Assembly (NCBI GenBank): GCA_905235605.1
Contig: CAJOMF010000014.1
Location: 4,662-68,661 of the forward strand
Direction of reading: 5' to 3'
DNA from: an uncultured bacterium
GTDB taxonomy: Bacteria > UBP6 > UBA1177
Length of the DNA stretch: 64,000 bases
How positions within the stretch are numbered: position 1 is the stretch's first letter; the number at the start of each line of letters is the position of its first letter. The position numbers and the translations under genes were made by a program. Under the pieces are notes generated by a model that made no database searches, had not been told where the DNA came from, and worked only from the letters and a program-made list of their open reading frames with translations. Shown one piece after another: positions 28,787-57,129 of the stretch.

Positions 28787-28824
28787 GCGGCTGTTTTTGG
28801 TTTAATTAACTTTTGGAGGAAAAA

Positions 28825-29325
28825 ATGAAAAAAACCGCATTACTGCTGCTTGCAGTCGTTTTCAGCTGCTTCTTTGTTTCGGCTGAGACAAAACAACAGC
28901 CCGAACAGGCAAAAACAGCTCCCGCTGCTCCGGCAAAACAACTTCAGTGGGCAAAATATCCTGTGTTTATGGCAACTTGGGAAAAAGCCTACGAATACTG
29001 CGAAAATCTTGAAGAAAACGGATTCAAAGACTGGCGCCTTCCAACCATCGACGAACTCCGCTCGATAGTTAAAAAGTGCCCCGAGACCGCTACCGGCGGA
29101 AAATGCGCGATCAGCGACAAAAACGGCAAACTCAGCCTGAACGACTACGACAAACAGGACTGCCGCGGCTGCCGCAGAGGAGGATTCGACCTTCCCGGAA
29201 ACGGATGGTTCTGGTCTGCTTCACAGGTAACCGGCACTGACCACTTCTGGGTCATCAGCTTCAAAAACACAAGAGTTTCTCACGGCAAAAGAGTCGTTCC
29301 CTACAACGCTTACTGCGTCAGATAA
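28825..29325 (+). CDS. DUF1566 / Fibrobacter succinogenes major paralogous domain (Lcl C-terminal-like) secreted protein
   Basis: Signal peptide. …YEYCENLEENGFKDWRLPTIDELRSIV…WFWSAS…YNAYCVR, the DUF1566/Fib_succ_major signature. ATG 28825 after GGAGGA. Confidence 0.75.
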   Translation: MKKTALLLLAVVFSCFFVSAETKQQPEQAKTAPAAPAKQLQWAKYPVFMATWEKAYEYCENLEENGFKDWRLPTIDELRSIVKKCPETATGGKCAISDKNGKLSLNDYDKQDCRGCRRGGFDLPGNGWFWSASQVTGTDHFWVISFKNTRVSHGKRVVPYNAYCVR

Positions 29326-31868: not shown

Positions 31869-32264
31869 ATGGAAGTGAATTTCAGTGACAGATGTTTTGT
31901 CTGCGGAAAAAACAATGTTGACGGGCTTCATCTCGACATACACCGCGACGATGAAAAGAAGGCGGCATGGGCAGAGATCGCTGTTCCGGATAAATTCTGC
32001 GGCTGGGAAGGGATAATCCACGGCGGGATAATCTCGACTCTGCTTGACGAGATAATGGCGTATTCGGCATTCACTCACAACGAAAAAGGGGTCACCGGCG
32101 AGATCAGTGTGCGCTTCAGAAAGCCGATGCCTTCGAACAGAAAGGTAAAAGTCGAAGGCTGTGTCGGATCGGAAAAGGGCAGAGTCCTCTGCACTACCGG
32201 AAAGATAACGCTTGACGGCGTTCTGATTGCGGAAGCCACGGCAAAAATGGTCAGACTGGACTGA
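31869..32264 (+). CDS. Hotdog-fold thioesterase (PaaI/YbgC-like) with N-terminal CxxC
   Basis: CFVCG…[14 protein letters not shown] motif typical of PaaI-type thioesterases. Start placed at MEVNFS. Confidence 0.6.
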
Positions 32265-32271
32265 GGAAAAC

Positions 32272-33210
32272 ATGATAAGAAAAACTGTTCTGGTCACCGG
32301 AGGAGCCGGTTTCGTCGGTTCCCACCTATGCAAAGCCCTGCTGGAGCGCGGAGATCACGTTGTCTGCATCGACAATTTCATCAGCGGCAGACTTTCGAAT
32401 ATCGAGCCGCTCAAGAAAAATCCTGAATTCGACCTTCTGATCCACGATGTGACGGAGCCTTACAATTTTTATGTTGACGAGATCTTCAATTTAGCGTGTC
32501 CGGCAAGCCCGATTTTTTATCAGAAAGATCCGATCGCGACTTACAAAACGACTGTTTTAGGCGCGATAAACGCCCTTGACCTCGCGCTCAGATGGAATGC
32601 GAAGATTTTTCAGGCTTCCACCAGCGAAGTTTACGGTGACGCGCTTGTTCATCCGCAGCCTGAAAGTTACTGGGGGAATGTCAATCCGCACGGTGTCAGG
32701 AGTTGCTACGACGAAGGTAAAAGAGGAGCCGAATCGCTCTTTTTCGATTATCGCAGAAAACACGGAATCAGAATTAAAGTTGCGAGAATATTCAATACTT
32801 ATGGTCCGAATATGAATGTTGACGACGGCAGGGTCGTAAGCAATTTCATAATTCAGGCACTCCAGAACCGCGACATCACGGTTTACGGTGACGGATTGCA
32901 GACGCGCAGTTTCTGCTATGTTGATGACCTGATCCGCGGAATGCTGGCACTCATGGATTCCGATGATTCTGTCACAGGTCCTGTAAACCTCGGAAATCCC
33001 GGCGAATTTACGATGCTGGAGCTTGCCGGAAAAGTTCTTGAACAGACCGGCAGCAAGTCAAAACTCGCATTCCTGCCGCTTCCGGGTGACGACCCGCGTG
33101 TCCGCCGCCCCGACATAACTCTTGCCGGAAAACTTCTCGGCTGGAAACCCGAGATCCCGCTTGACGAAGGTCTGCGCCGGACGATCGAATATTTCAAAGG
33201 TATACTCTGA
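32272..33210 (+). CDS. uxs: UDP-glucuronate decarboxylase (UDP-xylose synthase), SDR family
   Basis: [14 protein letters not shown] Rossmann motif. YDEGKR catalytic region. Matches UXS1/ArnA-decarboxylase-like proteins throughout. ATG 32272 after GAGGAAAA. Confidence 0.8.
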
Positions 33211-33231
33211 TTTTTCAGCAAAAATAAAAAA

Positions 33232-33256
33232 GGCCGGCTGACACCGGCCCCGTTTT
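33232..33256. terminator. Bidirectional rho-independent terminator between convergent genes
   Basis: GGCCGG-CTGACA-CCGGCC stem-loop, flanked by an A-tract upstream and CCGTTTT downstream. Confidence 0.5.
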
Positions 33257-33277: not shown

Positions 33278-33526
33278 TCACTTTTTACTTTTTTTAGGAG
33301 ATTCTTTTTTCTCTTTTGCACAGACTTTGCAGAATTTGTAGCCGTTTTCCAAAGCCTCTTCTTCTGATGCGAAAACTTTGGTGCACCCTTTGCAGTTGTA
33401 GTAACGACATGTTGATTTGTGACACGTTTTTGTGTCCGGGTTGCAGTGAATTTCTGCCGCAAATGCAATCGAAAATGAAAAAATCATTACTGACAAAACA
33501 AGAAATTTGGAAACAACTTTTTTCAT
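33278..33526 (-). CDS. Small secreted Cys-rich protein (8 Cys, Lys-rich tail)
   Basis: Signal peptide MKKVVSKFLVLSVMIFSFSIAFA. Mature region CNPDTKTCHKSTCRYYNCKGC…CKVC. GGAG RBS. Confidence 0.45.
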   Translation of the reverse strand: MKKVVSKFLVLSVMIFSFSIAFAAEIHCNPDTKTCHKSTCRYYNCKGCTKVFASEEEALENGYKFCKVCAKEKKESPKKSKK

Positions 33527-33763
33527 GATAAATACTCCAATTTAAAAAATTAACAAAAAACGGTGAATATCTAATATGCGATTTTAAATTTGTCAACAAA
33601 ATTTTAACAAAAATTTGAGAAAATTATTTAAATATGCGAAAATATTGAAAAATAAAAATCCTTTGTAATAAAATATTTTTATTTATAATGAAAAATAAAA
33701 AGTTGATTTTTTGTTGTGGTTGCAATTATATAATTTAGAAAATTTTTCTTTGAGGTTTGAGAC

Positions 33764-34603
33764 ATGAATCAAAATGACACAAGTTTGATAATGTATATTG
33801 CGGAAGACGGTGTTACGCGCATTCAGGCGACTTTTGACCGAGATACGGTATGGCTTTCAATCGACCAGATGGCCGAACTGTTTCAGAGAGACAAATCAAC
33901 AATTTCAAGGCATATAAAAAATGTATTTGATGAAAGAGAGCTTGACAAGAATCGAGTTGTTGCAAATTTTGCAACAACTGCCGCTGACGGAAAAACGTAT
34001 CAAGTCGATCATTACAATTTAGATGTAATAATTTCAGTTGGTTATCGTGTCAAATCAATTCGTGGTACACAGTTCAGAATATGGGCTAACGGCGTTTTGA
34101 AAGAATATTTGCTAAAAGGCTACGCCATCAATCAACGGATAGACAGGTTGGAACGTCGTGTTAGCAAGACAGAGGAAAAAATAGACTTTTTTGTCCGCAC
34201 ATCACTGCCTCCAGTAGAAGGTGTTTTCTTCCAAGGTCAAATCTTCGACGCCTATGCAAAATTCGAATCATTCATTCAAAGTGCTGAAAAAGAAATTTTT
34301 CTTATTGACAACTATATTGATTTATCGGTTCTGGAAAGGCTCACTAAAAAACAAAAAGATGTGAAAGTCACTATTTATACGGATCCGAAAACGAAACTAA
34401 GCGAGCAGGATGTTCAGAAATTCAACGAACAATATCCGCAGCTTACACTAAAACACACATCTAAAGCACATGACCGCTTTCTTATAATTGACGGCGTAAC
34501 TCTTTATCACATCGGCGCATCCCTAAAGGATCTCGGCAAAAAATGTTTTGCATTCGAAGTGCTTGATTCAGCGTGGATAAAAGAGATTTTGAAGAATTTG
34601 TGA
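33764..34603 (+). CDS. RhuM-family (virulence-associated, DNA-binding-like) protein
   Basis: Conserved RhuM core YQVDHYNLDVIISVGYRVKSIRGTQFRIWANGVLKEYLLKGYAINQ. Preceded by an AT-rich roughly 230-bp intergenic region holding a TTGATT-N18-TATATA promoter. Confidence 0.65.
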   Translation: MNQNDTSLIMYIAEDGVTRIQATFDRDTVWLSIDQMAELFQRDKSTISRHIKNVFDERELDKNRVVANFATTAADGKTYQVDHYNLDVIISVGYRVKSIRGTQFRIWANGVLKEYLLKGYAINQRIDRLERRVSKTEEKIDFFVRTSLPPVEGVFFQGQIFDAYAKFESFIQSAEKEIFLIDNYIDLSVLERLTKKQKDVKVTIYTDPKTKLSEQDVQKFNEQYPQLTLKHTSKAHDRFLIIDGVTLYHIGASLKDLGKKCFAFEVLDSAWIKEILKNL

Positions 34604-34724
34604 AAGAATGCCACGACCCGGAGAGACGTTCTGGAACGTCTTCAGAAAAGAACCATTGAATCCGTAAATGAGACGTATCATGATTCGTCTCTACAAAAAA
34701 ATTGCGGTCTCTGACGAACAACCT

Positions 34725-35740
34725 CTACCTGACACAACGGACACTATGTCTGTTGATGTTCTCCCTATACTGGTCGTACACGCGGCCGGAATAGAAATGC
34801 ACGCCCCACGCTTTGCGTGTTTTGCAGACGAAGGTAGAGGAAGACCAAAAATAGCTATCGATGCTTGGCATATCGGGAAAATCTGAAGCGGGGTTATATT
34901 TTTTATAATTTACAAGGGAAGCCAGTTCGTTTTTGTTCGGAAGCCTCCAGTCAGAATATCCGGCATAAGTCAGGGTTTCGCAGTAGGAAAGAGCCTCTTG
35001 CCAGATCTTATCGGTTACATAAGTTTTCTGCCAGATGAGTCCTGTTTCTCTGTCTGTCACAATGACATCTCCATGGACGGTCGAAGATTTAAATGAACCT
35101 GTCGGCAATGTAGCCCCCCTAACACACCTGACATAGACCCAGTACTGAATAGTCTTATCGTGGTAGTCCATGCGTCCGTCACCGAAATCCACACACCACG
35201 CGTAGTCCGTATAATCTACGTCTACGTTGGTAGAGGAAGACCAGAAATGGTAGTCTGGCGTATCCGGGAAATAACTCGTGTCGATTGCAGGATAATCTTT
35301 TGAGTTGTCAACGATAGTCAGAAGTTCCTGCGGTGTCGGCAGACGCCAGTCGGAATATCCCGCGTATTTAAGACTGTCGCAGTATGAAACGGCACCATCC
35401 CATTTATATTCGTCTGCTGCCACATCAGCCCCGTGTTGTTGTCAAGAACAACTGTCTGTGACGAAATTGTCTGAACAGTAAAATCCTGCGGTATGCATAC
35501 TCCCTGATACTGCACGTCCTGACCGAAGAAATCTTCTCCTTCTGCCGGGCACGTGATTTCGCTGTTCTCGTAGTCGTAGCATTTGTCCTGACCTGTGCAG
35601 ATGTTGCCAAAACACAGTTTTTGCGTCGAACAACCTTTTTCACCCGTGTCGGCGTTGTCGCTTGTTTTCGAACCGCCGCCGCAGCTTACGACGAAAATCA
35701 TCGCTGCGAAAAGTGCAAAAACAACCGAAAATTTCTTCAT
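34725..35740 (-). pseudogene. DUF1566-domain lipoprotein disrupted by a 1-nt frameshift (two overlapping ORFs 35318-35740 and 34725-35423)
   Basis: N-terminal ORF has signal peptide + lipobox and ends …NNTGLMWQQ. The DUF1566 continuation (ADEYKWDGAVSYC…SDWRLPT…) resumes in another frame. Consistent with a single-base deletion near 35416 (cagGca -> cagca). Confidence 0.5.
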
Positions 35741-35763
35741 TTTTTCCTCCTAATTTAAAATAC

Positions 35764-36783
35764 CTAGTCCAGTATTTCCCAATGACCGTTTTTGTCGGCA
35801 CCGATACGCTTTATGAGACCTTTTTCTTTCAAAGACGAAAAAATTCTTTCCGCCTGTCTCTGGCTGATGTTCAGACGAAGTGCAGCCGTTTTTGCCGATA
35901 TTTCAGGATTTTCTTTAATAAAATCAAGAATTTTAATTTCGCTCGCGCTGACATTTACACCGACATTTGCACCGACATTTGCACCGACATCTGATGTCGT
36001 TCTGTCGGCAAACCGGTGCCTTTTTATGGCATTGGCAATCATTTTCAGCATAAATTCTACAAAAACTCCCGAATCGGCATCATCGGTGCTCTGTTCGATC
36101 GCTTTGTAGTATCCTGCCTGATTTTCCCAGATCATGTTTTCAATGGGCAGGTGTGCGAAAACGGGATTCCACTCCGAGAGAAGTCTCGACTGCCAGAATC
36201 TTCCCATCCTGCCGTTGCCGTCTTCAAACGGATGGATGAACTCGAATTCGTAGTGAAAAACGCTGCTTTTGATGAGTATGTGGTCTTCAGCATTTTTCAG
36301 CCACTCGAAAAGATCGGATATGAGCCCTGAAACCATGTGTGCCGGAGGAGCGACATGCGAAATCCCGCTTCTGCCCATCACGCCGACTCCTCCGCGCCTG
36401 AAATGTCCGGGATTGTCTACTAAGCCCAAAGCCATGATCCCGTGCGCCTTGAGCAGGTCTTTAACGCTGAAAGGATCGAGATTCGGGAACTCTTCGTAAG
36501 CAAGGATCGCGTTTCTTACTTCCTGGATTTCTTTTATCGGCGCGATCACGTGTTTACCTTCGATCAGAGCTGTGACCTGCTCTTCAGAAAGTGAGTTCCC
36601 TTCGATTGCAAGAGAGCCGCGGATTGTTTTCATGCGGTTCACTTTGCGGAGCATGGGCCCGTCAGCCTGTTCGAGACGGATCGCAAAACGCTCAAGCAGA
36701 GCCGAGATTTCCGCCACCAGATTGACTGTTTCAGCCGTTATCGTAAAGGGCGGAGTGTGGATTTTTTTCTTTTTCTCGACCAT
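35764..36783 (-). CDS. fic: Fic-family protein (class II, auto-inhibited AMPylase type) with C-terminal winged HTH
   Basis: Canonical Fic motif HPFEDGNGRMGR. N-terminal inhibitory helix motif SLAIEGN (S/TxxxEG/N). C-terminal wHTH (…LRLNISQRQAERIFSSLKEKGLIKR). Confidence 0.8.
   Translation of the reverse strand: MVEKKKKIHTPPFTITAETVNLVAEISALLERFAIRLEQADGPMLRKVNRMKTIRGSLAIEGNSLSEEQVTALIEGKHVIAPIKEIQEVRNAILAYEEFPNLDPFSVKDLLKAHGIMALGLVDNPGHFRRGGVGVMGRSGISHVAPPAHMVSGLISDLFEWLKNAEDHILIKSSVFHYEFEFIHPFEDGNGRMGRFWQSRLLSEWNPVFAHLPIENMIWENQAGYYKAIEQSTDDADSGVFVEFMLKMIANAIKRHRFADRTTSDVGANVGANVGVNVSASEIKILDFIKENPEISAKTAALRLNISQRQAERIFSSLKEKGLIKRIGADKNGHWEILD
35951..35997. repeat. 12-bp tandem repeat (about 3.5 copies) inside the Fic coding region
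   Basis: acatttacaccg acatttgcaccg acatttgcaccg acatctg, encoding (VGAN)n in the Fic protein. Confidence 0.6.
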
Positions 36784-38156
36784 TACTTATTGAATTCGTT
36801 GAGCTTGTCTTCGAGAAGCTGTTTGATTTCAGCCATTCTTTCAGGCGTTTCGGCTTCGACTCTCATGACGATAACGTTCTGCGTGTTGCTCGGACGCATT
36901 AAGCCCCAGCCGTCTTTGAAAGTGACTCTGACGCCGTCGATATCGTTTACTTCGTAGCCGCCGTTTTTGAAGAAATTGACAACGTTTTCAACGATCTGGA
37001 ACTTTTTCGTCTCGTCGACTTCGATCCTGAGTTCGGGAGTAGAAAATGTTTCGGGGATCCCTTCAAGAAGTTTGTCGAAATCTGCTCCGTGTTTTCCTAT
37101 TATCTCAAGCATTCTGAACGCGGAATAGATTGCGCAGTCGTAGCCGAAGAAGCGGTGTTTAAAGAAGACGTGTCCGCTCATTTCTCCGCCGAAAGCGGCT
37201 CCGATCTCTTTCATTTTGACTTTGATGAGCGAGTGTCCTGCCTTCCACATTACCGGTTTGCCGCCGTGGGATGCAATGTCGTCGTAAAGAGTCTTGCTGC
37301 ACTTTACATCTCCTACGATTGCCGCGCCGGGAACTTCTTCGAGGACGCTTCTTGCGAAAATATTGAGGATCTTGTCGCCCCAGATGATTTTTCCGTTTCT
37401 GTCGACTATGCCGATTCTGTCGGCGTCGCCGTCAAAACCGATGCCGAGATCGGCTTTGTTCTCTTTTACCGCCGCGATCATCTTCTGGATGTAAGCCTCG
37501 ACCGTCGGATCGGGGTGATGGTTCGGGAATCTGCCGTCCGGCTCCTCGAAAATGCTGATGACGTTGAGCCCCATCTTGCGCATGATCGGAACTGCGACAA
37601 AGCCGCCGACACCGTTTCCCGCATCGACTACGAGTTTGATTTTTTCGGGATGATCGATGTGTATCGTCTTGAAAATGAACTTTTCAAAGTCGGGAATGAT
37701 GTTGTAAGTGGTGTTCGTTCCCTTTTTTTCAGGATTGATGAAGTCGTCAGCTTCCATGATATCCGCGATTTCCTGAATTCCGTCGCCGTAGACTGGAAGA
37801 TCGATGAGGTTTACTTTGAAACCGTTGTATTCAGGCGGATTGTGGCTGCCCGTGATCATTACCGCGCCCTGAACATCGATATTGAACATCGAAAAATAGC
37901 AGAGACCAGTCGGGATCATGCCGAGAAAGATCGTGTCGATACCGCTGTCGTTGAAACCTTTTATCATAGCCTGAGCAAAAGAAGGCGAGCTCAGTCTCGC
38001 ATCGTGACCGATCGAAACCGTCTTGAAAGAGGGGAGTTTTTTCTTGTAGAAACTTGCGCATCCGCGCGCCAGATTGTAGGCAAAATCATCAGTTAAATCG
38101 ATGTTTACATAGCCTCTGACATCATACTGTCTAAAAATCGTTCTGTTGATTTTCAT
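36783..38156 (-). CDS. Phosphomannomutase/phosphoglucomutase (alpha-D-phosphohexomutase family)
   Basis: Active-site loop TGSHNPPEYNGFK. Mg-binding DGDADR. 457 aa. Its stop overlaps the Fic start by 1 nt (TAATG). Confidence 0.8.
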   Translation of the reverse strand: MKINRTIFRQYDVRGYVNIDLTDDFAYNLARGCASFYKKKLPSFKTVSIGHDARLSSPSFAQAMIKGFNDSGIDTIFLGMIPTGLCYFSMFNIDVQGAVMITGSHNPPEYNGFKVNLIDLPVYGDGIQEIADIMEADDFINPEKKGTNTTYNIIPDFEKFIFKTIHIDHPEKIKLVVDAGNGVGGFVAVPIMRKMGLNVISIFEEPDGRFPNHHPDPTVEAYIQKMIAAVKENKADLGIGFDGDADRIGIVDRNGKIIWGDKILNIFARSVLEEVPGAAIVGDVKCSKTLYDDIASHGGKPVMWKAGHSLIKVKMKEIGAAFGGEMSGHVFFKHRFFGYDCAIYSAFRMLEIIGKHGADFDKLLEGIPETFSTPELRIEVDETKKFQIVENVVNFFKNGGYEVNDIDGVRVTFKDGWGLMRPSNTQNVIVMRVEAETPERMAEIKQLLEDKLNEFNK

Positions 38157-38268: not shown

Positions 38269-39627
38269 TTACAGCACTGCCGCCATATAATACGGCAGGT
38301 AAATCACTTCGTTATCACGTTTTACATCACCGTCATACAGGACATACTGCAAGCCGACTTTGTTGGAAAACTTTGTTTTGAAATTCTGGAGTGATTTCAC
38401 TGCAAACTCTCTGCCTGATTTTACCTCGACCGGAACAACTTTTTTTTCGTTTCTGATCAGAAAATCGATTTCCATCACGGGTTTGCCCTTATTGTTGTAT
38501 TCAACATAAAAGAGGATTTTATGCCCGTTGCTGCGAAGGCACTGCGCGACCGCGTTTTCCACAAACATTCCCTCGTTTATATGCAGTTTGTCAGTGAGGA
38601 TTGTCTTATAAAACCCGTTATCCATAAATGTTCCGTCGCCGAAACTGAGGTTTATAAGCAAACCGGTATCAAGCAGGTAGCACTTGAAACGCCCGTTATC
38701 CATATTGAGGGTGAGAGCAGGGCTCGGATCGGTGACATTTCTCGCAACATTTACGATCATTGCTTCAGAAAGCCACGTGAGAGGGCTGCTGTATTCGCGG
38801 TATCTGGCGTTTTTATCCACATGAGAGAGCTGAAACGAACTGCTTTTTTCGTGTTTTGAGAGCTCGGAAGGAATATTATCCAGGATATTTCCCAAATAGG
38901 TGCTGTTTTCCTCTTTTTGATTCTTGATGTCGTTTCTGTAAAGAGCCAGAATTTCTTTCTTTGCAAAATCGACTTTTTCAAAATCTTTCGTCTGAATGTA
39001 TTTTACAACGGCCTGCGGCATTCCGCCGACACACATATATTCCCTGAATTTTCTGAAAATGTCTTTGTGAAGATTCCCGAGCGGTTTAATGTTTTCATAA
39101 CTGCTTTTTATGATAGGAAAAGTGAATTCGTCGCCCGCTGCCTGGAGAAATTCTTCAAAATCAAGCGGAAACATTTCAACGGCATATTCTTCAGAAGGAA
39201 TAAGGATTTCCGAACTCTCGGTCTTCTTTTTTATGCCAGCCAGTGATCCTGTTTCGATATAGTCGTATCTTCCGTCAGCCAACAGGGTTTTCAGAGCCTG
39301 GCGCGCCAGAGGGTAAAGCTGTATTTCATCTAAAATAATGAGCGAATCCCGCTTATAAAGCTTTTTCCCGTATTGCAGCTGAATTACGTTGAAAAAGTAA
39401 TCTAAGTCCAGAAGACTGTTCACGAAAAGGTCTCGGACAGTGTCGTTAGTTGATTGGAAGTTTATAGTTATGAAAGACTTATATTCGTTTTTCCCGAGTT
39501 CTTCCGCAATGGTTGTCTTTCCGACACGGCGTGCGCCTTTCAAAAATAAAGCATATTCCGGCGCATATTCTTTCTTCCATTTGAGTAATTCTTCATAAAC
39601 CTTTCTTTTCAGTACGATTTCTGCCAT
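38269..39627 (-). CDS. AAA_14 + DUF4143 family ATPase
   Basis: Walker A GARRVGKTT. About 450 aa, an architecture typical of DUF4143 ATPases. Start MAEIVLK (ATG 39627) after AGAGG. Confidence 0.65.
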   Translation of the reverse strand: MAEIVLKRKVYEELLKWKKEYAPEYALFLKGARRVGKTTIAEELGKNEYKSFITINFQSTNDTVRDLFVNSLLDLDYFFNVIQLQYGKKLYKRDSLIILDEIQLYPLARQALKTLLADGRYDYIETGSLAGIKKKTESSEILIPSEEYAVEMFPLDFEEFLQAAGDEFTFPIIKSSYENIKPLGNLHKDIFRKFREYMCVGGMPQAVVKYIQTKDFEKVDFAKKEILALYRNDIKNQKEENSTYLGNILDNIPSELSKHEKSSSFQLSHVDKNARYREYSSPLTWLSEAMIVNVARNVTDPSPALTLNMDNGRFKCYLLDTGLLINLSFGDGTFMDNGFYKTILTDKLHINEGMFVENAVAQCLRSNGHKILFYVEYNNKGKPVMEIDFLIRNEKKVVPVEVKSGREFAVKSLQNFKTKFSNKVGLQYVLYDGDVKRDNEVIYLPYYMAAVL

Positions 39628-39642
39628 TTGAGAACCTCTTTT

Positions 39643-39728
39643 CCACAAAATCTCCAATTTAAACCATGAAGATTTTCACAAAATCTCCAAATTTGTAATT
39701 GCCAGATATCACAAAATCTCTAATTTTT
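39643..39728. repeat. Three direct repeats CACAAAATCTC(C/T)AAtTT at about 33-bp spacing in the divergent promoter region upstream of the DUF4143 ATPase
   Basis: Copies at 39643-39660, 39676-39694 and 39709-39728. The proximal copy is 16 nt from the ATG. Confidence 0.55.
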
Positions 39729-45482: not shown

Positions 45483-46103
45483 TCAGTCCTCGAACAATGC
45501 GTTAATTGTCTTTATTGCTCGTTCACTGCTTGAAGTCTCGATCATGTTGGTAAAGTTCTGCATAAGATAGAGCGGGGTGATGTCGTAGATCATAGGTGAA
45601 CCTTCTACGATTTCGTTGTTTTTGAATTCAACTTTGGAATAAACAATGTAGCCGACGGAACAATCGAAAAATTTCTCTGCAAACTGGCACACTGTGAAAA
45701 GCAAAAATGCCAATGGTTTCGGGCCATAAGTAGTGTCGGCATAGATTTCGGCATCATGCTCGAGTTCTTTGAGGATGGCTTTGAACATAAACTGAAAATT
45801 TGTTTTCGACATATCGAACGCGCTCGGAAGTATTTTATAAGTGATTTTTGCTCCGACTTTGTTGAAATGATCGAGTTCTTCCTCAAAAAGTTTCGCGTTG
45901 TCGCTTCCAGCGTTTTCACCCCCTTTTGTCTCGAGAAGGAGAACTTTGACATCATCATCCGCTTTAAGCGAGTTTGCAAGAGCAGCTGTCGCAGCAAACA
46001 GAATAGGTTCTTTAATCTCAAGCAGAGCGTTGCCGTCAACGGGATAGACGCATTTTTTTAAATTCTTTTTAAGCGGAAGTGTTACGAATAGGATTTTTTT
46101 CAT
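45483..46103 (-). CDS. Hypothetical protein (possible Rossmann-like fold; DTTYGP motif)
   Basis: 206 aa with a 2-nt gap to the downstream sigma-like gene, so an operon. No recognisable family. Preceded by island motif copy 1. Confidence 0.4.
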   Translation of the reverse strand: MKKILFVTLPLKKNLKKCVYPVDGNALLEIKEPILFAATAALANSLKADDDVKVLLLETKGGENAGSDNAKLFEEELDHFNKVGAKITYKILPSAFDMSKTNFQFMFKAILKELEHDAEIYADTTYGPKPLAFLLFTVCQFAEKFFDCSVGYIVYSKVEFKNNEIVEGSPMIYDITPLYLMQNFTNMIETSSSERAIKTINALFED

Positions 46104-46145
46104 TTTTTTTACCTCAATTATTCACAAAAAAACATTTCACACTGT

Positions 46146-46178
46146 ATATAATCGGTGAAAAACGGATAAGTTGACAAA
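46146..46178. promoter_or_regulatory. Island-specific conserved motif, copy 1 (TATAAtCGGTGAAAAA-N8-GTTGACAAAA)
   Basis: 43 nt 5' of the 206-aa gene start, on the template of minus-strand genes. Four more copies elsewhere in the island. Confidence 0.5.
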
Positions 46179-46209
46179 ATTTTTTCAAAAATTTCATAAT
46201 ATGCCTGTT

Positions 46210-47730
46210 TTATTGATGTTTTTCTTCACGTTTATCCATTTTCGCCAGCTCGAAAGTGAGATATATCAGGTAGATCTGAATCGCAAAAGCGTGCTTTTCA
46301 AAGAAATCGACCTCTTCGTTTTCGGAGCAGTAGAGAAAACTCATGAATTTTTTCAGATGAGCGCGTTCGTCTTCATCCAAAACATTATTATTATAGATAT
46401 TGGTTTTGTCGAGTTCCTCTTTGGGAAACTTGAGATAGCCGTCTTTATTGAAGACTTTACGCCATAATTCTTTATTGTTTGCCGCGTTGATGTTCAAAGG
46501 AGCCGTGATCTTTTTAAAATAATGCTCCAGAATTACGAGAAGTTTTTCCGCATTTTCTTTTTGAGCCGGATTTTTCTTAAGTTCACAGAGATATTGGTAA
46601 GAATCAAAAAAAGCGTAAAGGAGCAGCTTTTCCCAATACAATATTTGAAAATCGTTGAACATTTGGAAGTCGATATATTTGTCGAACAGTTTATAGACAG
46701 CGACATTCGCTCCCAAGTGGGTTATCCTGTTGCGTTCGGGATACAAAAACTTGTGATTCAGCGCACTTCTATTTGTAAAGCGGTCGTTTTTATTAGCTTT
46801 GATCGTTTGCCCGTCGAGCGAAGGATGTCCGTCCTGCCATTCCATTTCGGATTCTTCAAAGAATTTGCAGGTTATTTCCCTGCAGAATTTTTCATTTCCG
46901 GCAAAAAATGTCTGTGTAAAGCACTGATCCTTGAAACCGAAATCCAGTGTCTTGAGTGTTTTGAGATTAGTCAATACCTTTGTTATTTCTTCATTAGCTT
47001 CTGTATCGGTATAATTCGATTTTTTTCTGTTCGGGAAGATTTTAAGAATAGATTCCTGATGTTCCCTTACAAAATTCACCACATTTATGAGTTTTTCCCT
47101 CGGAACGGCTTCGTTTTCCGGCGGCATGAAATTAGCAAGGATGCGGAGAACGCCTTCATTCGCCTTGAAATAATTTCCTTCGAATTTCGTAAAATCGATA
47201 TCCGTGAATGGAGCTTTTTTTAAAAAACCGAGATCTTTGCTGATTTTATTAAGGATTTCACTCTGTTTTTCAGGCAGATACCAGGATTTTTCTTCCAAGG
47301 CCGAATCAAAAAGCTTCTTGATTTTCAATTTCCGTTCATCGGAAGCGAAAAATGTTCCGACTTCGCAGATGTCACGCAGCAGAAAGAAGAAAACTCCCTG
47401 CAGAAGCCGCATATCTTTTTCGAAAAGTTCAGGATCGATATTTTTGATCTTATCAGGTCTGGCAAGCGATATAACAGCAAAAGCCTTTTCCGCGATAGTT
47501 GTTCCAGCTATGATTCCGCTCGTTGCATTAAAAATATTTTGTTCGACTATGCTTTGGGGAGCAGAAAATACCTTTTTTAGAGAATCAATATTCAAGCCAC
47601 TTAAAGAGTTATAAAAAGCGAGAACCTTGTTCGGTTTTTCACTGAAACCACCGCGCAGGACCTCTTTGTTTTTCTTTATTTCTGCAATAATTTTATCAAG
47701 TTCTTCTTTTGATCTCATGGCATTCTCCAT
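46210..47730 (-). CDS. Hypothetical 506-aa protein (contains an Rx4H HEPN-like motif, RNRITH)
   Basis: Long ORF in the low-GC island with no recognisable catalytic family. The HEPN-like assignment is weak. Confidence 0.4.
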   Translation of the reverse strand: MENAMRSKEELDKIIAEIKKNKEVLRGGFSEKPNKVLAFYNSLSGLNIDSLKKVFSAPQSIVEQNIFNATSGIIAGTTIAEKAFAVISLARPDKIKNIDPELFEKDMRLLQGVFFFLLRDICEVGTFFASDERKLKIKKLFDSALEEKSWYLPEKQSEILNKISKDLGFLKKAPFTDIDFTKFEGNYFKANEGVLRILANFMPPENEAVPREKLINVVNFVREHQESILKIFPNRKKSNYTDTEANEEITKVLTNLKTLKTLDFGFKDQCFTQTFFAGNEKFCREITCKFFEESEMEWQDGHPSLDGQTIKANKNDRFTNRSALNHKFLYPERNRITHLGANVAVYKLFDKYIDFQMFNDFQILYWEKLLLYAFFDSYQYLCELKKNPAQKENAEKLLVILEHYFKKITAPLNINAANNKELWRKVFNKDGYLKFPKEELDKTNIYNNNVLDEDERAHLKKFMSFLYCSENEEVDFFEKHAFAIQIYLIYLTFELAKMDKREEKHQ

Positions 47731-47764
47731 TCAAAACAGCAATCCAATGATTCTGCTGATAAGA

Positions 47765-47797
47765 TATAAGCGGTGAAAAGAAGGGCGGTTGACAATT
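47765..47797. promoter_or_regulatory. Island-specific conserved motif, copy 2
   Basis: TATAAGCGGTGAAAAGAAGGGCGGTTGACAATT, 35 nt 5' of the 506-aa gene start. Confidence 0.5.
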
Positions 47798-48326
47798 ATT
47801 TTAACTTTTGTTGTTCTTTTTTTGTCGCATCATAGGCTTTTTTGACGCTTTTTTTGACTCCGTTGAAAGGGTTTAAAACGGAGTTTTTTGTCGAGTCTAC
47901 ATCCTCGTCATACCTTGCTGATGCGACCACATTATTTTCGAGATCGGTAAAAATAATGTAAAGAGTCCAGTTCCTCTGGTTGTCTTTGTCAATTTCCTCA
48001 TCAAAGTTTTTGAAAACAGTTCTATAATTCGTCAGGAAATTTTTCGAGTCAGTCTCAATTTTCTCCTTGTCTTTTTTATAACTGAGAACAAAACAGTGGA
48101 TCGGACTGTTCTGATAATAAGAACCAGTGTAATTGTCTCCTTCAAAATCACTGTTGATTTTTTGTCCGTTTATGCAACGCCTGTAATCATTGTTGCTTTG
48201 TCCATATGAGGTGGTGTATACATATGGAAAATCTGCAGTGGATTGCTTTTGCAGAGAAATCTTCTCAGCCCAAACGGCAGTAAAAACGAACAAAATGGCA
48301 AAAACAGCCAAAAATTTCTTTAACAT
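47796..48326 (-). CDS. Small secreted hypothetical protein
   Basis: Start placed at MLKKFLAVFAILFVFTAVWA (signal peptide). Asn/Tyr-rich. Lies between the 276-aa and 506-aa genes. Confidence 0.4.
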   Translation of the reverse strand: MLKKFLAVFAILFVFTAVWAEKISLQKQSTADFPYVYTTSYGQSNNDYRRCINGQKINSDFEGDNYTGSYYQNSPIHCFVLSYKKDKEKIETDSKNFLTNYRTVFKNFDEEIDKDNQRNWTLYIIFTDLENNVVASARYDEDVDSTKNSVLNPFNGVKKSVKKAYDATKKEQQKLK

Positions 48327-48403
48327 TTTTTCCTCCCTTAAGTTTAGATCCGTAATCAACCAAAATTCGAGTCAGAATAGTTAAAAATAGAGATTTGTAA
48401 ATA

Positions 48404-49234
48404 TTATGCGGCTTTGTCGAAAGCCAATATTTTATTGATCAATTTCGACAGTGATTCTTCTTTGAGTAATTTGCCGGTGAACTTTTTTATTGTTTTATGG
48501 TACTGACGTATATCGTATATGACCTCATCTTGCTGCTCTTTGTTTCTGAACCTCAATATCATAAAACGGATGTGTCTCTGGTATGCTTTGAAATCGGAAT
48601 TCACGAAATCATAAAATGTCTTTTCAGGGAAGCGTGTATGGTAAAATATTGCAAATTCGCTTCTTGCTTCCGTCAGATCGGAATAAGACGGCTTGTCACT
48701 GTGTTGGATATCTACTATTTCGTTGTTTATTTTTCTTTGGTTTGATTGAATGAGATCGTAACCTGGGAATTTTTTTGTTTTATCGGAACTCCAGTCTCTG
48801 TCGATGGGTTTTGACGGATCAAAAAACTCTCCCGAAAGGTCGTTGATGTAAAATTCCAGATCTTCGATCCCGATCTGCTTTATTTTGTGCTTTTTCTCCA
48901 TAAACTTCCGGCCTTCAAATGTGATTTCATAACTTTCGCCGTTTTCTTTCAGCAGCTCGTTCTTTATCAGGAAATTGAATTGCATATTCAGAAAACTGTT
49001 GCTGTCTATGCCCAGGAAAGAGCATATTTTCGAATATTCGGTAATACCGTTGTCGACAAGTTTCAGGATCACCATGCTGAAACGGTCGATTTCTCTTTCA
49101 GTTTCAAAAGCGACTTTCTGTTTGCATTTCCAGAACGGGAGATCAATTTCGAAAATGTCTTCCAGCTGGAATCCTTCCGTTGAGTATTCGTCCTTGTAAA
49201 GTTCCCAGATCCTCTGTTTAAGTTCTCTATCCAT
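48404..49234 (-). CDS. Hypothetical 276-aa protein (possible wHTH), translationally coupled to the upstream helicase
   Basis: 8-nt overlap with the helicase stop (…ATGGATAG…). Central segment resembles a winged helix. Confidence 0.45.
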   Translation of the reverse strand: MDRELKQRIWELYKDEYSTEGFQLEDIFEIDLPFWKCKQKVAFETEREIDRFSMVILKLVDNGITEYSKICSFLGIDSNSFLNMQFNFLIKNELLKENGESYEITFEGRKFMEKKHKIKQIGIEDLEFYINDLSGEFFDPSKPIDRDWSSDKTKKFPGYDLIQSNQRKINNEIVDIQHSDKPSYSDLTEARSEFAIFYHTRFPEKTFYDFVNSDFKAYQRHIRFMILRFRNKEQQDEVIYDIRQYHKTIKKFTGKLLKEESLSKLINKILAFDKAA

Positions 49235-52314: not shown

Positions 52315-54048
52315 TTATTGGTTGTTTCTCACACACACAACTTTGAGTTTATAGTCGAGAATGTAGGGAAAATCTGCCGAATGTGCTCCTCCGCGATTGT
52401 ATGCGTCAATAAGCATCGTCATGTGGCCGACTCTGGCGTTCATAAAGTCAACGCCCCATGCTTCTTTAGTGTTTTCCGGGTCGAGAGTTGATGACCAGAA
52501 GGCCTCAATTGAGCCGGTTTTGCTGAATTTGGGATCGTTTATTTCTTCCAAAAGTTGTTTTTGGGTTTCTTCTCCGAGCTCATAGTATTCCGTTTTTGCC
52601 GTCAGAGTGTTGATTTTACCGCACCCGTTGCAGTCTTTGCTCCAGCATTTTTCATTAAGGCACTGTCTGTTTTCGCTGATTCTGCACCTGCCTCCCAATT
52701 TGGTTTTGTCGCAGTTGTGAATAAGCGTGCGCAATTCGTCTATGTTTGGCAGGTGCCAGTCGGAATTGTTGTTTTCTGTAAGGTTTGAGCAGTAATTCTG
52801 TGCTTCTTCCCATGTCATCGGATCGGCTGCAACGGACGACCACTTCAAAGACTTGGGATTTGGCAATGATTTCACAGGTTTCCTTTTAGGTTTAACCTTG
52901 AAATCGTCATCTTTTCTGTCGCGGACGCAGATCACATCTGTATCGTGGTTTATCACCGGCACATAAAGAGCGAGGTCGAGCACCGGACTGTATGTCCAGC
53001 CGAACCGGTCTGGCCTTGCATGAGAGCCGTCCCAGATACTGTTTGCCGTGAGAGCCCTTATCCCGTGAGTTCTTCTTGCAGCAAGGAAAAAACTTTCATC
53101 TGCATCTTTTTCCGGCTTTTTATATCTGCCGTGCAGCGATTTTAATTCTTCTATTGTCGGCTGGCGCCAGTCGCTGAAACCTCCTTCTCTTAAAGATTCA
53201 CAGTATGCATAGGCATCATGCACCCCGAAAGTATTGTTCACGCAGTCACGATACAGGTATCCGCAGGGAATTTCCCGTTCTTCGTTTTCTTCGCAGATCC
53301 AGCTTTCATCGCAAAGTCCTTTTGCTGCGGTGTACATGATGTGCCGATCTGCAAGCAGCGCTGCTGTGTAGTTTTTCTTTTTCGACACCGTGCTTTCAGA
53401 CCACTGCAGTTTGTCAGGATCGATGGTTTTTTCTATTTCAATTTTTTTCTCTGCGGCAAAGTCTTTCGGGTAAGATTCCCTGACGCACGCAACATTGCAG
53501 AGATCCCGCATACACGGGCGGCACGGATGCCAGTCAGGATCGGCAAGGCAGCTTTTTCCGCTAACCATCCCGTAACCGTTAAACCAGTTCTGGTCATTTT
53601 CCTTTTCGTTGAAAGACCAGAAACAGCTGTCGTAAAGGTAAAATCCGTTGACATAAGTCCGCAATGTGTCAGCCTCTTTTTCTGTGTAGAATATGCCGCT
53701 TCCCTCCTTGAATACTGAACAATCTTTCATTATTGATTTCAATTCCTCGGTTGTCGGCGGTCTCCAGTCGGAAAAACCGTCTTCGCGCAGCTCTTCGCAG
53801 TATTCTGCGATGGTGTCGTAATACATCGGTCCGGGAGAGGGCTGCGACCACATAAGATTTGGAGCGACATCGGTTTTTACAGTGGACTGCTTCTCACGGC
53901 GTATGGCAGGATCGGGATCATTTTCAGTGTCTTGAAGCAGAATTATGTCTTCGTTTTTTGGTTTCTGAACCTCTTCTTTTGAAGAACAGCCGGACATCAA
54001 GCAGAGTGTAATCATGCAAAGGTGTAAGATCATTGAGATATTTTTCAT
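52315..54048 (-). CDS. Secreted lipoprotein with three DUF1566 / Fib_succ_major domains
   Basis: Lipobox LMSGCSS. Three copies of the YCEELREDGFSDWRPPTTEELKSI / YCESLREGGFSDWRQPTIEELKSL / YCSNLTENNNSDWHLPNIDELRTL signature. Confidence 0.7.
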   Translation of the reverse strand: MKNISMILHLCMITLCLMSGCSSKEEVQKPKNEDIILLQDTENDPDPAIRREKQSTVKTDVAPNLMWSQPSPGPMYYDTIAEYCEELREDGFSDWRPPTTEELKSIMKDCSVFKEGSGIFYTEKEADTLRTYVNGFYLYDSCFWSFNEKENDQNWFNGYGMVSGKSCLADPDWHPCRPCMRDLCNVACVRESYPKDFAAEKKIEIEKTIDPDKLQWSESTVSKKKNYTAALLADRHIMYTAAKGLCDESWICEENEEREIPCGYLYRDCVNNTFGVHDAYAYCESLREGGFSDWRQPTIEELKSLHGRYKKPEKDADESFFLAARRTHGIRALTANSIWDGSHARPDRFGWTYSPVLDLALYVPVINHDTDVICVRDRKDDDFKVKPKRKPVKSLPNPKSLKWSSVAADPMTWEEAQNYCSNLTENNNSDWHLPNIDELRTLIHNCDKTKLGGRCRISENRQCLNEKCWSKDCNGCGKINTLTAKTEYYELGEETQKQLLEEINDPKFSKTGSIEAFWSSTLDPENTKEAWGVDFMNARVGHMTMLIDAYNRGGAHSADFPYILDYKLKVVCVRNNQ

Positions 54049-54073
54049 CGTTTCCCTCCGTTATGTGGTTGTT

Positions 54074-54364
54074 TTAGGCAACGCAAAGAAGACGGTATTC
54101 TTCGTGCCATGTTCTGTCGTCTTCAAAAGCGATAATGTTTCTGAGTTTTCGTCTGAATTCGCGCTGAGGTTTGTCACTTTTGTAGAAGGAATAGTGCGTA
54201 AGGTGGTAACAGCCGCATTTTGAGCAGTAATATTTCCTTTTCGGGATCTCGTTCGCGTGTCCGCATTTTTTTGCTCCGTTGAGAGCGTTTCCCGCTTCTC
54301 TTTCAGTGTAGCAGATCTTTCCCGTGCTTTTGCATCTCAAATCTCTTCCGAAATCGTCTTTCAT
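54074..54364 (-). CDS. Small zinc-ribbon protein (CxxxxxxC … CSKCGC)
   Basis: 96 aa, basic, two Cys clusters. GGAGGG RBS. Island motif copy 4 lies 44 nt upstream. Confidence 0.4.
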   Translation of the reverse strand: MKDDFGRDLRCKSTGKICYTEREAGNALNGAKKCGHANEIPKRKYYCSKCGCYHLTHYSFYKSDKPQREFRRKLRNIIAFEDDRTWHEEYRLLCVA

Positions 54365-54407
54365 CTTTTCCCTCCATTTGTCTTGTCAATCAAACGCCTA
54401 CACGACA

Positions 54408-54440
54408 TGTAAGGGGTGGAAAATGAGAGAGTTGACAAAA
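54408..54440. promoter_or_regulatory. Island-specific conserved motif, copy 4 (degenerate 5' half)
   Basis: TGTAAGGGGTGGAAAATGAGAGAGTTGACAAAA. Confidence 0.45.
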
Positions 54441-54454
54441 TTTGCCTCCTTTTT

Positions 54455-55012
54455 TCATACTAAAGTGTTAAAAAGCCTGTCCCCAGTGTCTGGTCCTATG
54501 CCGTTTTTTTGAGTCAAAACTTTTTGACCGACAAAAGAATTATTTGAAACTCTGACTGTAAAAACTTCATAATCGTTGAATTTTTTAATAGATTTCTCGC
54601 ACAAAACATTCGTGACAATTTTAATTTTATCTTTTGGAATCTCAGATTTTTCGATTGCACTCAAAATGCCCTTTCCTGAATTGATAACTGCATCTACGAA
54701 AATAACGTCTTTGTTGAAAAGCAGCAGTTTGTTTTTCTCAAAAAAATCCTTGTCTGTTTTGTCATCGTAAAATGTTACGGCACAATCCAGACAATCTGCA
54801 AAACCTAAAGCCATTGGAATCCCAGCCCTTATTAAAGCTATGATTATGGAATCTTTTGTGAAGTGATTTTTAAAATATTTCCCTAATGCAAATCCCAAAT
54901 CAATATGAGCATGTCTCAATTCAGCTCCAGTTTTTTGAGAGTCACTTTTGCAAATACTGATTGCGTCAACAATTTTATCTGTTGAAAAATTTTCGCTTAA
55001 AACATACAGCAT
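54455..55012 (-). CDS. Uracil phosphoribosyltransferase-like PRTase (Upp family)
   Basis: PRPP-binding loop VIFVDAVINSGKG. C-terminal GIGPDTGDRLFNT matches the Upp tail (GLGDAGDRLFGT). GAGGAG RBS. 2-nt gap to the upstream gene. Confidence 0.65.
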   Translation of the reverse strand: MLYVLSENFSTDKIVDAISICKSDSQKTGAELRHAHIDLGFALGKYFKNHFTKDSIIIALIRAGIPMALGFADCLDCAVTFYDDKTDKDFFEKNKLLLFNKDVIFVDAVINSGKGILSAIEKSEIPKDKIKIVTNVLCEKSIKKFNDYEVFTVRVSNNSFVGQKVLTQKNGIGPDTGDRLFNTLV

Positions 55013-55014
55013 TA

Positions 55015-56220
55015 CTATTCTCCTCTGATTCCTTTATATTGATTTTCATTCCCTGCAAACTGTCGTATTGCGGTGTTTCTATGATTATCAATGTATGTTT
55101 GTACAGCAGGTCTTATTTTCCCTGGAGCCCAGAGGTAGCCGCTTGACATTTCAAGCATATAAATGTCGCACATGCTGTCTCCGGCACTAAAAACTTCGTA
55201 ATTTTGTAACAGAAGCAATTCTACGACATAACCTTTGACAAAATCCGAGATAAGATTCTTTGAGTTTTGGTTGAGATCGTTGCCTATTACCATTTCAAAT
55301 AAATGATGCTCTGCATTGAATTGATTCCAAAATTTATATATTCCAGAGGTGAGTCCAAACACGTGATACCCAGAAGTTTTTAAAGATTTTAGTTTTTCGA
55401 TGACGATATTATTGGCATGAAATAAAGAGGTCTTAGGGTGTTTTTTGAAGTTCTTGTATAATTCCTTTTGTCGCCAAAACTGATATACAGAATAGATATC
55501 GTCTGTAAAAATGGTTTTTAATATTGCAGGATCGGTGTTGTTGAGTTCAAAAAACGGAATAGTCGAATCCTCTTTAATGATGGTCTTGTCACAATCAAAT
55601 ATGGCGATTTTTTTAAATTTGTTTGGGTCGGAGCGTGTGTTCTCAATTTGAGAAACAATTCTTTGAGCTATGTTCATAGGTGTTAATTCAGGGAAACAAT
55701 CCATGTATTCATGCAAAAACTTCATGTCCAGATCAAAATCAGCATCCAGAACAATGAATTCTTTACGAGATTTGAAGCATATATCTCTAAGTTCCGAAAT
55801 CTCTTTTAATTGCCAATCTTTTATTTGTTGTTCCGTAAGATTTCTAAATTTTTGATTTTTCTGGCTTAAATTTATTCTTTCTTTTGCAATAGATGGATTG
55901 ACGTGCAGGTACAAAAATATGTCGTACAACTTACAATCGTTTTCTGTGCAAACAATTTTAAAACTTTGAGAATCAGGAAAACAATAGTGACCATCGACAA
56001 TAAAATCCTGTTGATTTTTTAATTCTTCTGCGAAAATAGTTCTTGTCCTTTTTTGAAGTTCGGAATCTAATTCCTGAAAATTTTTGCAATATATCCTGTT
56101 AGATATGATGTTTAATTGCTCAGATCCTTTCTTGTGGCAGTATTGCGGAAAATGACGAAGAAATTTTTCTATAAACGTGTCTTTCCCGGCACAGGAAATT
56201 CCATATACAGCAATCTTCAT
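55015..56220 (-). CDS. Fusion of a P-loop nucleoside/nucleotide kinase-like domain (Udk/NRK-like) and a HAD-superfamily phosphatase domain
   Basis: N-terminal KIAVYGISCAGKDT P-loop. C-terminal HAD motif I IAIFDCDKTII (DxDxT) and motif IV GDSMCD. ATGA overlap with the radical SAM gene. Confidence 0.6.
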   Translation of the reverse strand: MKIAVYGISCAGKDTFIEKFLRHFPQYCHKKGSEQLNIISNRIYCKNFQELDSELQKRTRTIFAEELKNQQDFIVDGHYCFPDSQSFKIVCTENDCKLYDIFLYLHVNPSIAKERINLSQKNQKFRNLTEQQIKDWQLKEISELRDICFKSRKEFIVLDADFDLDMKFLHEYMDCFPELTPMNIAQRIVSQIENTRSDPNKFKKIAIFDCDKTIIKEDSTIPFFELNNTDPAILKTIFTDDIYSVYQFWRQKELYKNFKKHPKTSLFHANNIVIEKLKSLKTSGYHVFGLTSGIYKFWNQFNAEHHLFEMVIGNDLNQNSKNLISDFVKGYVVELLLLQNYEVFSAGDSMCDIYMLEMSSGYLWAPGKIRPAVQTYIDNHRNTAIRQFAGNENQYKGIRGE

Positions 56221-57128: not shown

Positions 57129-57129
57129 T

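Follow-up and report, generated by a model that had tools for sequence, protein, structure and literature searches.

Accessory, mostly defence-type genes vary in two intergenic slots around a phosphomannomutase gene of an uncultured UBP6 bacterium and its rumen relatives

Results

Gene content of the locus and its variation among relatives

We have analysed a stretch of 64,000 nucleotides from an uncultured bacterium (GTDB lineage UBP6; UBA1177; assembly GCA_905235605.1, contig CAJOMF010000014.1, positions 4,662 to 68,661), hereafter called the window, around the gene for a phosphomannomutase/phosphoglucomutase (PMM; 36783-38156, minus strand). PMM is flanked by two intergenic slots in which accessory, mostly defence-type genes are gained and lost between closely related species. 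In the window, the slot between PMM and a small gene that we call small82 contains a rhuM-like gene (33764-34603, plus strand), a gene for a DUF1566/Lcl_C lipoprotein (34725-35740, minus strand) and a gene for a class II Fic AMPylase (35764-36783, minus strand). The second slot, between p314 and PMM, is occupied by a gene for an AAA_14 + DUF4143 ATPase (38269-39657, minus strand) that matches PADLOC PDC-S01 with E = 4.8e-102. An original prediction for the first slot, made from the sequence, had described a RhuM-family gene, a DUF1566 gene in two parts and a fic gene; the open reading frames (ORFs) are found where it had placed them and the Pfam matches agree with it.

Searches for identical proteins locate the window in metagenome assemblies from the rumen. 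A PMM-based scan of species-representative genomes gave 21 loci (numbered below with the prefix L), 13 of which belong to close relatives. These relatives are metagenome-assembled genomes from the rumen of goat, yak, buffalo, deer and cattle, several of them labelled UBP6, and their PMM shows 95-98% amino acid identity and about 89-94% nucleotide identity. The backbone Clp–p314–PMM–small82–UXS–thioesterase–ACT–OMP is conserved in all 13, and the length of the gap between PMM and small82 ranges from 194 bp to 3.3 kb. We observed that this gap is empty (194-219 bp, 17-26% GC) in L009, L010, L014 and L022 as well as in the more distant L017 and L018. It contains Fic alone in L008 and L013, a Fic gene with an internal deletion of residues 28-125 in L011, short Fic remnants only in L012, and Fic remnants with an unrelated 419-residue DUF1566 lipoprotein in L015. 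In L016, Fic is accompanied by a different, 161-residue DUF1566 gene and by a RhuM gene that is 95% identical to that of the window. The 13 relatives divide into six empty slots, two with Fic only, three with a decayed Fic, one with the full set and one rearranged. The genes are therefore accessory, as had been predicted: a conserved rhuM-fic synteny, which would have counted against the prediction, is not found in this set.

The second slot is also variable. The AAA_14/DUF4143 gene is missing from it in L008, L010, L011, L013, L016 and L022; elsewhere the slot carries MmeI-type (type IIG) enzymes (L007 and L009) or a group composed of McrBC, MazEF, an ORF6N-PLD protein and a WYL protein (L012). 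The MmeI-type enzyme of L007 (6929-9845) is read in two ORFs of 505 and 425 residues, for which a frameshift or an assembly error is possible.

We then considered how genes might reach these slots. No integrase or transposase was found among the ORFs or Pfam matches of the window, no tRNA gene between 25 and 45 kb, no Rfam family at the borders, and no flanking direct or inverted repeats or att sites beyond chance at the borders. A prophage or a remnant of an integrative and conjugative element was ruled out, as neither an integrase nor a phage structural gene is present and the PHROGs matches are to families of unknown function only. Exchange at the slots would presumably proceed by recombination through the conserved flanks.

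Taken together, we judge it fairly probable that the locus is a small defence hotspot without mobility genes, built from already catalogued families. The earlier proposal of a defence island fits the PADLOC assignments to SoFic and PDC-S05 in the first slot and to PDC-S01 across PMM. It also fits published data, according to which RhuM-family genes are enriched beside phase-variable restriction-modification (R-M) loci and RhuM and Fic/DOC genes occur inside type I R-M loci (PMC9881135). It counts against this reading that the SoFic, PDC-S05 and PDC-S01 assignments are matches to hidden Markov models (HMMs) alone.

The edges of the slot belong to the backbone

One edge of the PMM–small82 slot is small82 itself (33278-33526, minus strand), which encodes a secreted, cysteine-rich protein of 82 residues (CNPDTKTCHKSTCRYYNCKGC...FCKVC) and has a strongly conserved AT-rich promoter region; a Pfam search gave no family for it. 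The gene is convergent with that of a short-chain dehydrogenase/reductase resembling UDP-xylose synthase (UXS; 32227-33210, plus strand), and adjoins it in L008-L018 and L022, including all the genomes with an empty site, with 59-92% amino acid identity. Between the two genes is a hairpin similar to a bidirectional intrinsic terminator (33230-33251, both strands), with a 9-pair stem followed by a T-run on the minus strand and a 6-pair stem on the plus strand. Such a terminator had been predicted on both strands and is indeed present, but it does not bound an islet as was also suggested: the conserved small82 gene intervenes, and the hairpin is a backbone feature.

Next to small82 is a native AT-rich spacer containing the small82 promoter region (33527-33660, 17.9% GC), which is kept with or without accessory genes. 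These 134 bp align well in all relatives, with a conserved TTGACAAAT... block, and the blastn homology of L008, L012, L013 and L015 to the window extends from 33000 to 33657-33660. The following part (33661-33739) is AT-rich as well, contains promoter-like hexamers ahead of the rhuM-like gene and is common only to the window and L016. The whole spacer (33527-33763) measures 237 bp and has 18% GC, so that the predicted region of about 230 bp of nearly pure A/T does exist, but it is largely native backbone, the empty sites being equally AT-rich. Since the empty sites are AT-rich and the homology reaches 33657-33660, this A/T stretch is the native intergenic region that receives the genes.

Three modules of different history

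The region 33530-36783 has 42.9% GC versus 43.8% for the window, and the GC profile thus does not delimit an AT-rich islet. The Fic gene (48.0% GC; GC content at third codon positions, GC3, of 0.529) and the DUF1566 gene (47-48% GC; GC3 0.53-0.56) are both similar to PMM, UXS and Clp. The low composition is confined to the spacer and the rhuM-like gene (38.3% GC, GC3 0.357). About 13% of the 840-bp windows in the 64 kb are as GC-poor as this gene, whose deviation is modest by GC and clearer by GC3. Two longer stretches elsewhere in the window, at 46000-49000 and 54000-59000, have only 34-38% GC, well under the mean.

The divergence of the modules was also compared. Between the window and L008, L013 and L016 the synonymous divergence (dS) of Fic is 0.36-0.64, and that of PMM is 0.31-0.50. 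For the rhuM-like gene, the window and L016 differ by a dS of 0.18, the PMM dS of this pair being 0.49. Because Fic, DUF1566 and RhuM differ in distribution, composition and divergence, the PMM–small82 slot holds three independent modules and not one islet.

The original prediction had instead proposed a single AT-rich islet, acquired horizontally, that carries rhuM, a DUF1566 pseudogene and fic; it would have entered between UXS and PMM in one piece, with the terminator and the A/T stretch as its limits. The accessory nature of the genes, the low GC3 of the rhuM-like gene and the fact that L016 shares the whole arrangement speak in favour of a single insertion. However, Fic is found alone in two relatives and decayed in three, RhuM and DUF1566 are found without Fic in two other contexts (see below), and the GC3 of Fic and DUF1566 is host-like. 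In addition, the dS of Fic is comparable to that of PMM and the dS of RhuM is lower, both presumed boundaries belong to the backbone, and the GC content of the region equals the window mean. We therefore regard a single islet as very improbable. The suggestion that RhuM and Fic travel together is not upheld here, Fic being present without RhuM in L008, L013 and L011 and RhuM without Fic in the two other contexts.

A class II Fic AMPylase adjoining PMM

The Fic protein has 339 residues and is, according to its Pfam, PADLOC and PDB matches, a SoFic-like class II AMPylase with a C-terminal winged helix. The Pfam Fic domain scores 68.9 bits (cut-off 24), HTH_24 and MarR_2 match the winged helix at residues 278-328, and the PADLOC SoFic profile PDLC03963 aligns residues 15-328 with its positions 18-341 of 361 (E = 2.4e-44). 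The closest solved structure is PDB 4RGL (E = 5.5e-78), and SoFic and FICD chains also match. The catalytic motif HPFEDGNGRMGR (36199-36234, minus strand; residues 184-195) fits the class II consensus HxFx(D/E)GNGRxxR and is identical in L008, L013 and L016. The inhibitory-helix motif S57-L-A-I-E61-G62 (36598-36615, minus strand; residues 57-62), of the S/TxxxE(G/N) type, is N-terminal to the Fic core, which defines class II, and aligns with TVAIEG of a FICD homologue (PDB 5JJ6). The class II category reportedly goes back to Engel et al. 2012. Both motifs are intact in the four full-length copies out of four and dN/dS is about 0.1; the gene is under purifying selection, and the predicted integrity of the catalytic and inhibitory motifs is confirmed.

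A 12-nt in-frame tandem repeat of 3.4 copies (35950-35990) encodes a (VGAN)n linker from the Fic core to the winged helix. Its copy number differs among relatives, and Fic lengths range from 328 to 347 residues in the 90% cluster.

In the window, the start codon of Fic overlaps the stop codon of PMM (TAATG) and, in the relatives, Fic is located within 1-10 nt of PMM. Since the two codons overlap, Fic is probably co-transcribed with PMM. Given a dS close to that of PMM, together with the remnants and the deletion inside one copy, Fic is probably a long-term resident, lost repeatedly in several lineages, and not a recent arrival. One pair is an exception: between L008 and L016 the Fic dS is 0.09 for a PMM dS of 0.49, which points to a recent exchange.

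SoFic is a validated single-gene anti-phage defence (10.1101/2022.05.11.491447), and EcSofic was described as a toxic dimeric AMPylase dependent on the C-terminal domain; a small protein encoded downstream, AS1, counteracts it (PMC12249575). A search for an AS1-like small antitoxin gene downstream of Fic in the Fic-only relatives revealed no small ORF that is conserved. Several observations weigh against a defence function of the window protein. Its score with the NCBIfam SoFic equivalog NF046030 is 53.4 bits for a cut-off of 550, the protein resembles SoFic itself only weakly (about 35 bits over 110 residues), and it is host-like in composition and fused to a housekeeping operon, which is compatible with a regulatory role.

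Fic could accordingly be a housekeeping or regulatory AMPylase, or a winged-helix transcription factor, functionally tied to PMM or envelope-sugar metabolism and dispensable in some lineages. The overlap with PMM and the short distance kept in the relatives, the host-like GC3, the dS that tracks that of PMM, the MarR/HTH_24 type of the C-terminal winged helix-turn-helix and the score far under the equivalog cut-off would all fit such a role. On the other hand, the gene is absent from six of the 13 close relatives and decayed in three, which is unusual for a metabolic regulator, and the slot otherwise gathers defence genes. Moreover, the domain architecture and the PADLOC SoFic match span the full length of the protein, and wild-type EcSofic is toxic (PMC12249575). 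A purely regulatory Fic is thus possible but rather unlikely in our opinion, and a SoFic-like defence function is preferred.

The RhuM-like protein has a PLD-fold C-terminal domain

The rhuM-like gene encodes a protein of 279 residues with an N-terminal DNA-binding domain (residues 1 to about 131), a long helix (residues 99-146) and a C-terminal domain of the phospholipase D (PLD) fold (residues about 150-279). The match to Pfam Virulence_RhuM (PF13310) is well above the gathering score (E = 2.4e-23, 83.2 bits versus 33.7) but is restricted to residues 65-131, that is, to positions 2-69 of the 252 of the model, which is short of canonical RhuM coverage. The RhuM-family identity given in the original prediction therefore stands for the N-terminus only, the C-terminal half having a PLD fold. 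In contrast to this partial match, the PADLOC PDC-S05 model PDLC04879 covers the protein at full length (E = 1.6e-111, residues 4-278 versus positions 3-283 of 285). Of the remaining PDC-S05 and PDC-S23 models (about 330-346 residues), most match residues 1-130 only.

In the AlphaFold2 model, an N-terminal winged-helix-like domain is followed by a 48-residue helix and a C-terminal α/β domain, and a structural fold search identified the latter as a PLD fold. This domain contains an HKD-like motif, H236-D-R238-FLII-D243-...-G251-A-S253 (34469-34522, plus strand), of which H236, R238, D243, G251 and S253 are invariant in 22 homologues. The motif reads H-x-R-x4-D-x7-G-x-S versus the canonical HxK(x)4D(x)6GSxN, the equivalence of the residues being deduced from their spacing.

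Proteins with heads of only 50-58% identity agree at 89-90% in the C-terminal domain. The same C-terminal domain is also found behind ORF6N heads, with 65-67% amino acid identity, in L012 (4295-5194), L028 (13722-15191) and L030 (16041-16846), often a few kb from a RhuM-headed copy. The proximity of ORF6N- and RhuM-headed copies suggests head-swapping on a common effector domain. More distant RhuM-PLD homologues adjoin type I R-M genes, GmrSD with methylases, or HigBA. We found nothing relevant in the literature on a RhuM/ORF6N/PLD combination. One PDC-S05 representative, unrelated to the window protein, was reported to reduce T7 and T5 plating about 1000-fold in E. coli (PMC12881386).

A catalytic PLD domain is called into question by several points. 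The confidence of the AlphaFold2 model is moderate (pLDDT 71.7, about 80 within domains; pTM 0.43), the best structural matches (FAM83) are non-catalytic pseudo-PLDs, and Pfam PLDc_2 stays below its cut-off (E = 0.0056, 16.9 versus 27 bits). An invariant arginine occupies the position where the catalytic lysine of a PLD-like motif is expected. For the C-terminal domain, neither a single-sequence nor a profile search gave a PDB sequence match.

The replacement of lysine by arginine would also suit another explanation, in which the rhuM-like gene is a stranded regulator of a phage or mobile element, an antirepressor-type relative of Bro-N, KilA-N or ORF6N proteins, whose PLD-fold domain, as in FAM83 or TrmB, would serve for dimerisation or ligand binding and not for catalysis. 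ORF6N-fused paralogues do exist, and one homologue is labelled "prophage antirepressor-like protein" in the JGI source. However, the motif keeps its catalytic histidine, its aspartate and its G-x-S without variation, no prophage genes are located nearby, R-M and type IV restriction genes adjoin the homologues in other genomes, and a PDC-S05 member protected E. coli (PMC12881386). We consider a stranded regulator unlikely and favour a PDC-S05-type effector.

The rhuM-like and DUF1566 genes recur as a 2-kb unit

The rhuM-like gene and the convergent DUF1566 gene compose a block of 2.0 kb (33740-35750) that recurs in three chromosomal contexts. Aligned over 2025 bp, the block reaches 93.6% identity with its counterpart in L033/L034 (GCA_017539605.1 and an ENA scaffold), which has a peptidase S13 gene on one side and a MiaB-like gene on the other (5991-8015 in L033). 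The same outer ends are found in L032/L036 beside an M20 peptidase gene, with another DUF1566 body (7976-9756 in L032). The unit begins 24 bp upstream of the rhuM ATG and ends just beyond the ribosome-binding site of DUF1566; no terminal repeats are visible at its ends. The lipoprotein body is exchanged between contexts, and the signal-peptide end and rhuM are kept. The two genes move together as a 2-kb unit.

Such a convergent pair with identical outer ends in three contexts could be a functional two-gene system, combining for example surface exclusion with an intracellular nuclease, or consist of hitch-hiking neighbours. This genome is very rich in DUF1566 genes, at least four loci being present in the 64 kb, and the lipoprotein bodies (342, 218 and 161 residues) show about 30% identity between contexts. 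Distant RhuM-PLD homologues have no DUF1566 neighbour, and PADLOC handles PDC-S05 as a single-gene system. Because DUF1566 genes are dense and their bodies vary by context, the partnership is unproven, and we hold a functional two-gene system to be quite doubtful.

Further DUF1566/Lcl_C paralogues are present in the window at 28813-29325, at about 52.7-53.8 kb and at about 60.6-61.4 kb.

The frameshift of the DUF1566 gene

In the window, the DUF1566 gene is read as two overlapping ORFs (34725-35423 and 35318-35740, minus strand), in agreement with the frameshift that had been noticed, and Pfam Lcl_C (PF07603) gives 204.5 bits in two stretches. We observed that 13 nt (ATATCCGTCGGGA) are absent from the window between 35409 and 35410. 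In other assemblies of this population, three contigs stop no more than a few bases away from 35407, and ENA scaffold_266 has a scaffold gap of 10 N at the site of the frameshift. Two megahit contig ends overlap by 6 nt, and their joining restores ATATCCGTCGGGA. The gene repaired in this way encodes a lipoprotein of 342 residues with a signal peptide and lipobox, a cysteine-rich spacer and two Lcl_C domains; it reads ...TGLMWQQTIPTDIYKWDGAVSYC... across the repair, with equal spacing in homologues. NCBI MBR6245045.1, also of 342 residues, is 98% identical to the repaired protein, junction included. L033 and L034, which are contiguous and independent assemblies, carry the 13 nt, and the version shorter by 13 nt occurs in no record besides the window. 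Given the contig ends and N-gap at the site and the intact alleles of contiguous assemblies, the frameshift is most likely an assembly artefact and the gene intact, so that of the earlier description the two ORFs remain but a pseudogene most likely does not.

It counts against an artefact that the strain of the window could carry a truly disrupted DUF1566 allele, inactivated by a 13-bp deletion or by an insertion. The frameshift is present in the window sequence as given, and scaffold_266 combines a gap with 44 otherwise unseen nucleotides, in which in-frame reading gives a stop. Yet three assemblies of this population have a contig end exactly at the frameshift, the 6-nt overlap of contig ends yields an intact allele, the intact junction is identical in MBR6245045.1 and in two contiguous assemblies from other samples, and the shorter form has no second record. 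A real inactivation seems to us a minority possibility, and we retain the assembly artefact.

The 44 unique nucleotides (CGCCAATTATGCCTTCGTCAATTTGAATATTGAT...) lie beside the 10-N gap of scaffold_266 (L004 11647-11700, at about window position 35409). No match was obtained for them in the window, in the other loci analysed or in JGI metagenome contigs. The population may contain a second allele to which they belong, or the DUF1566 gene may have received an insertion. We also ruled out that the rhuM side and the Fic side had been joined chimerically at the break, since L016 is contiguous across Fic, DUF1566 and RhuM and L033/L034 are contiguous across the break.

Discussion

The locus illustrates how a housekeeping gene can become the centre of a small defence hotspot in the absence of mobility genes, here in the uncultured rumen phylum UBP6. 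In rumen genomes, SoFic, PDC-S01 and PDC-S05 reportedly rank among the most abundant of the predicted defence systems (PMC13356809). The families involved are already catalogued; what is mildly new is confined to two points, namely that this PDC-S05 subtype has a PLD fold and that it is paired with a lipoprotein gene in a 2-kb unit. Behind the "RhuM" label is a putative effector of the PLD fold whose DNA-binding heads can be exchanged, which offers a testable mechanism for the subtype. The locus also calls for caution, as an apparent pseudogene falls exactly on an assembly break and an AT-rich "insertion scar" is a native intergenic spacer.

In the mechanism that we propose, Glu61 of the inhibitory helix of Fic would prevent bound ATP from adopting a productive pose. 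This auto-inhibition would be lifted by a trigger, for which phage infection is plausible, and the de-repressed enzyme would then AMPylate cellular targets and arrest growth, as reported for EcSofic, and thereby abort the infection. The RhuM-PLD protein, for its part, would dimerise like Nuc or BfiI, via its long helix or its PLD domain, to form one active site; the dimer would cut DNA chosen by the head domain and thereby act as a PDC-S05-type anti-phage effector. The main alternatives to this scheme are the PMM-tied housekeeping role of Fic and a non-catalytic PLD-like domain, both considered above. A stronger proposal would make RhuM-N/PLD an undescribed mechanism class of PDC-S05, namely a BfiI-like, metal-independent dimeric nuclease with an H-x-R variant of the HKD motif, its strongly conserved effector domain being recombined with interchangeable RhuM-N or ORF6N heads, travelling in this rumen lineage as a functional pair with a diversifying DUF1566 lipoprotein. 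In this complete form we find the proposal hardly probable.

Comparison with known systems

Like SoFic and EcSofic, the Fic protein of the window has a class II layout, with the inhibitory motif located here about 123 residues upstream of HxFx(D/E)GNGRxxR, and a Fic core followed by a C-terminal winged-helix domain, the HMM match extending over residues 15-328. However, it is only distantly related to SoFic in sequence, its nearest structure being that of an uncharacterised Fic protein (4RGL). It also differs by the lack of an AS1-like small downstream ORF, by its junction to the PMM operon and by its variable (VGAN)n linker.

The RhuM-like protein resembles PDC-S05 by its end-to-end match to PDLC04879, by an N-terminal RhuM-type head in common with the other PDC-S05 models and by the defence-island neighbourhoods of its relatives, but this subtype has a PLD-fold domain in place of the canonical RhuM C-terminal region. 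With RhuM of Salmonella SPI-3 (PF13310) it shares about 70 residues at the start of the model, whereas the other 180 or so positions are unmatched; the "virulence" label of RhuM has no bearing on the window protein. The single-HKD homodimers (Nuc, NucT, Zucchini, BfiI, NgoAVII and the nuclease domain of SauUSI) have, like the RhuM-like protein, one copy of the motif per chain, so that a dimer would be needed. BfiI in particular combines, as here, a domain of catalytic type with a separate DNA-binding domain, and the long helix of the RhuM-like protein could mediate dimerisation. The motif of the window protein nevertheless differs from that of these nucleases, H-x-R-x4-D-x7-G-x-S instead of H-x-K-x4-D-x6-G-S-x-N, and its PDB sequence searches gave no significant match.

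Finally, Lcl_C/DUF1566 domains are known from surface proteins, such as the C-terminal domain of Legionella Lcl and the Lsa25-like adhesins of Leptospira, and the lipoprotein of the window likewise has Lcl_C domains, in two copies, behind a lipoprotein signal peptide. It differs from Lcl and the Lsa25-like proteins in belonging to a large and rapidly diversifying paralogous family, of which the allele present at this locus varies between relatives.

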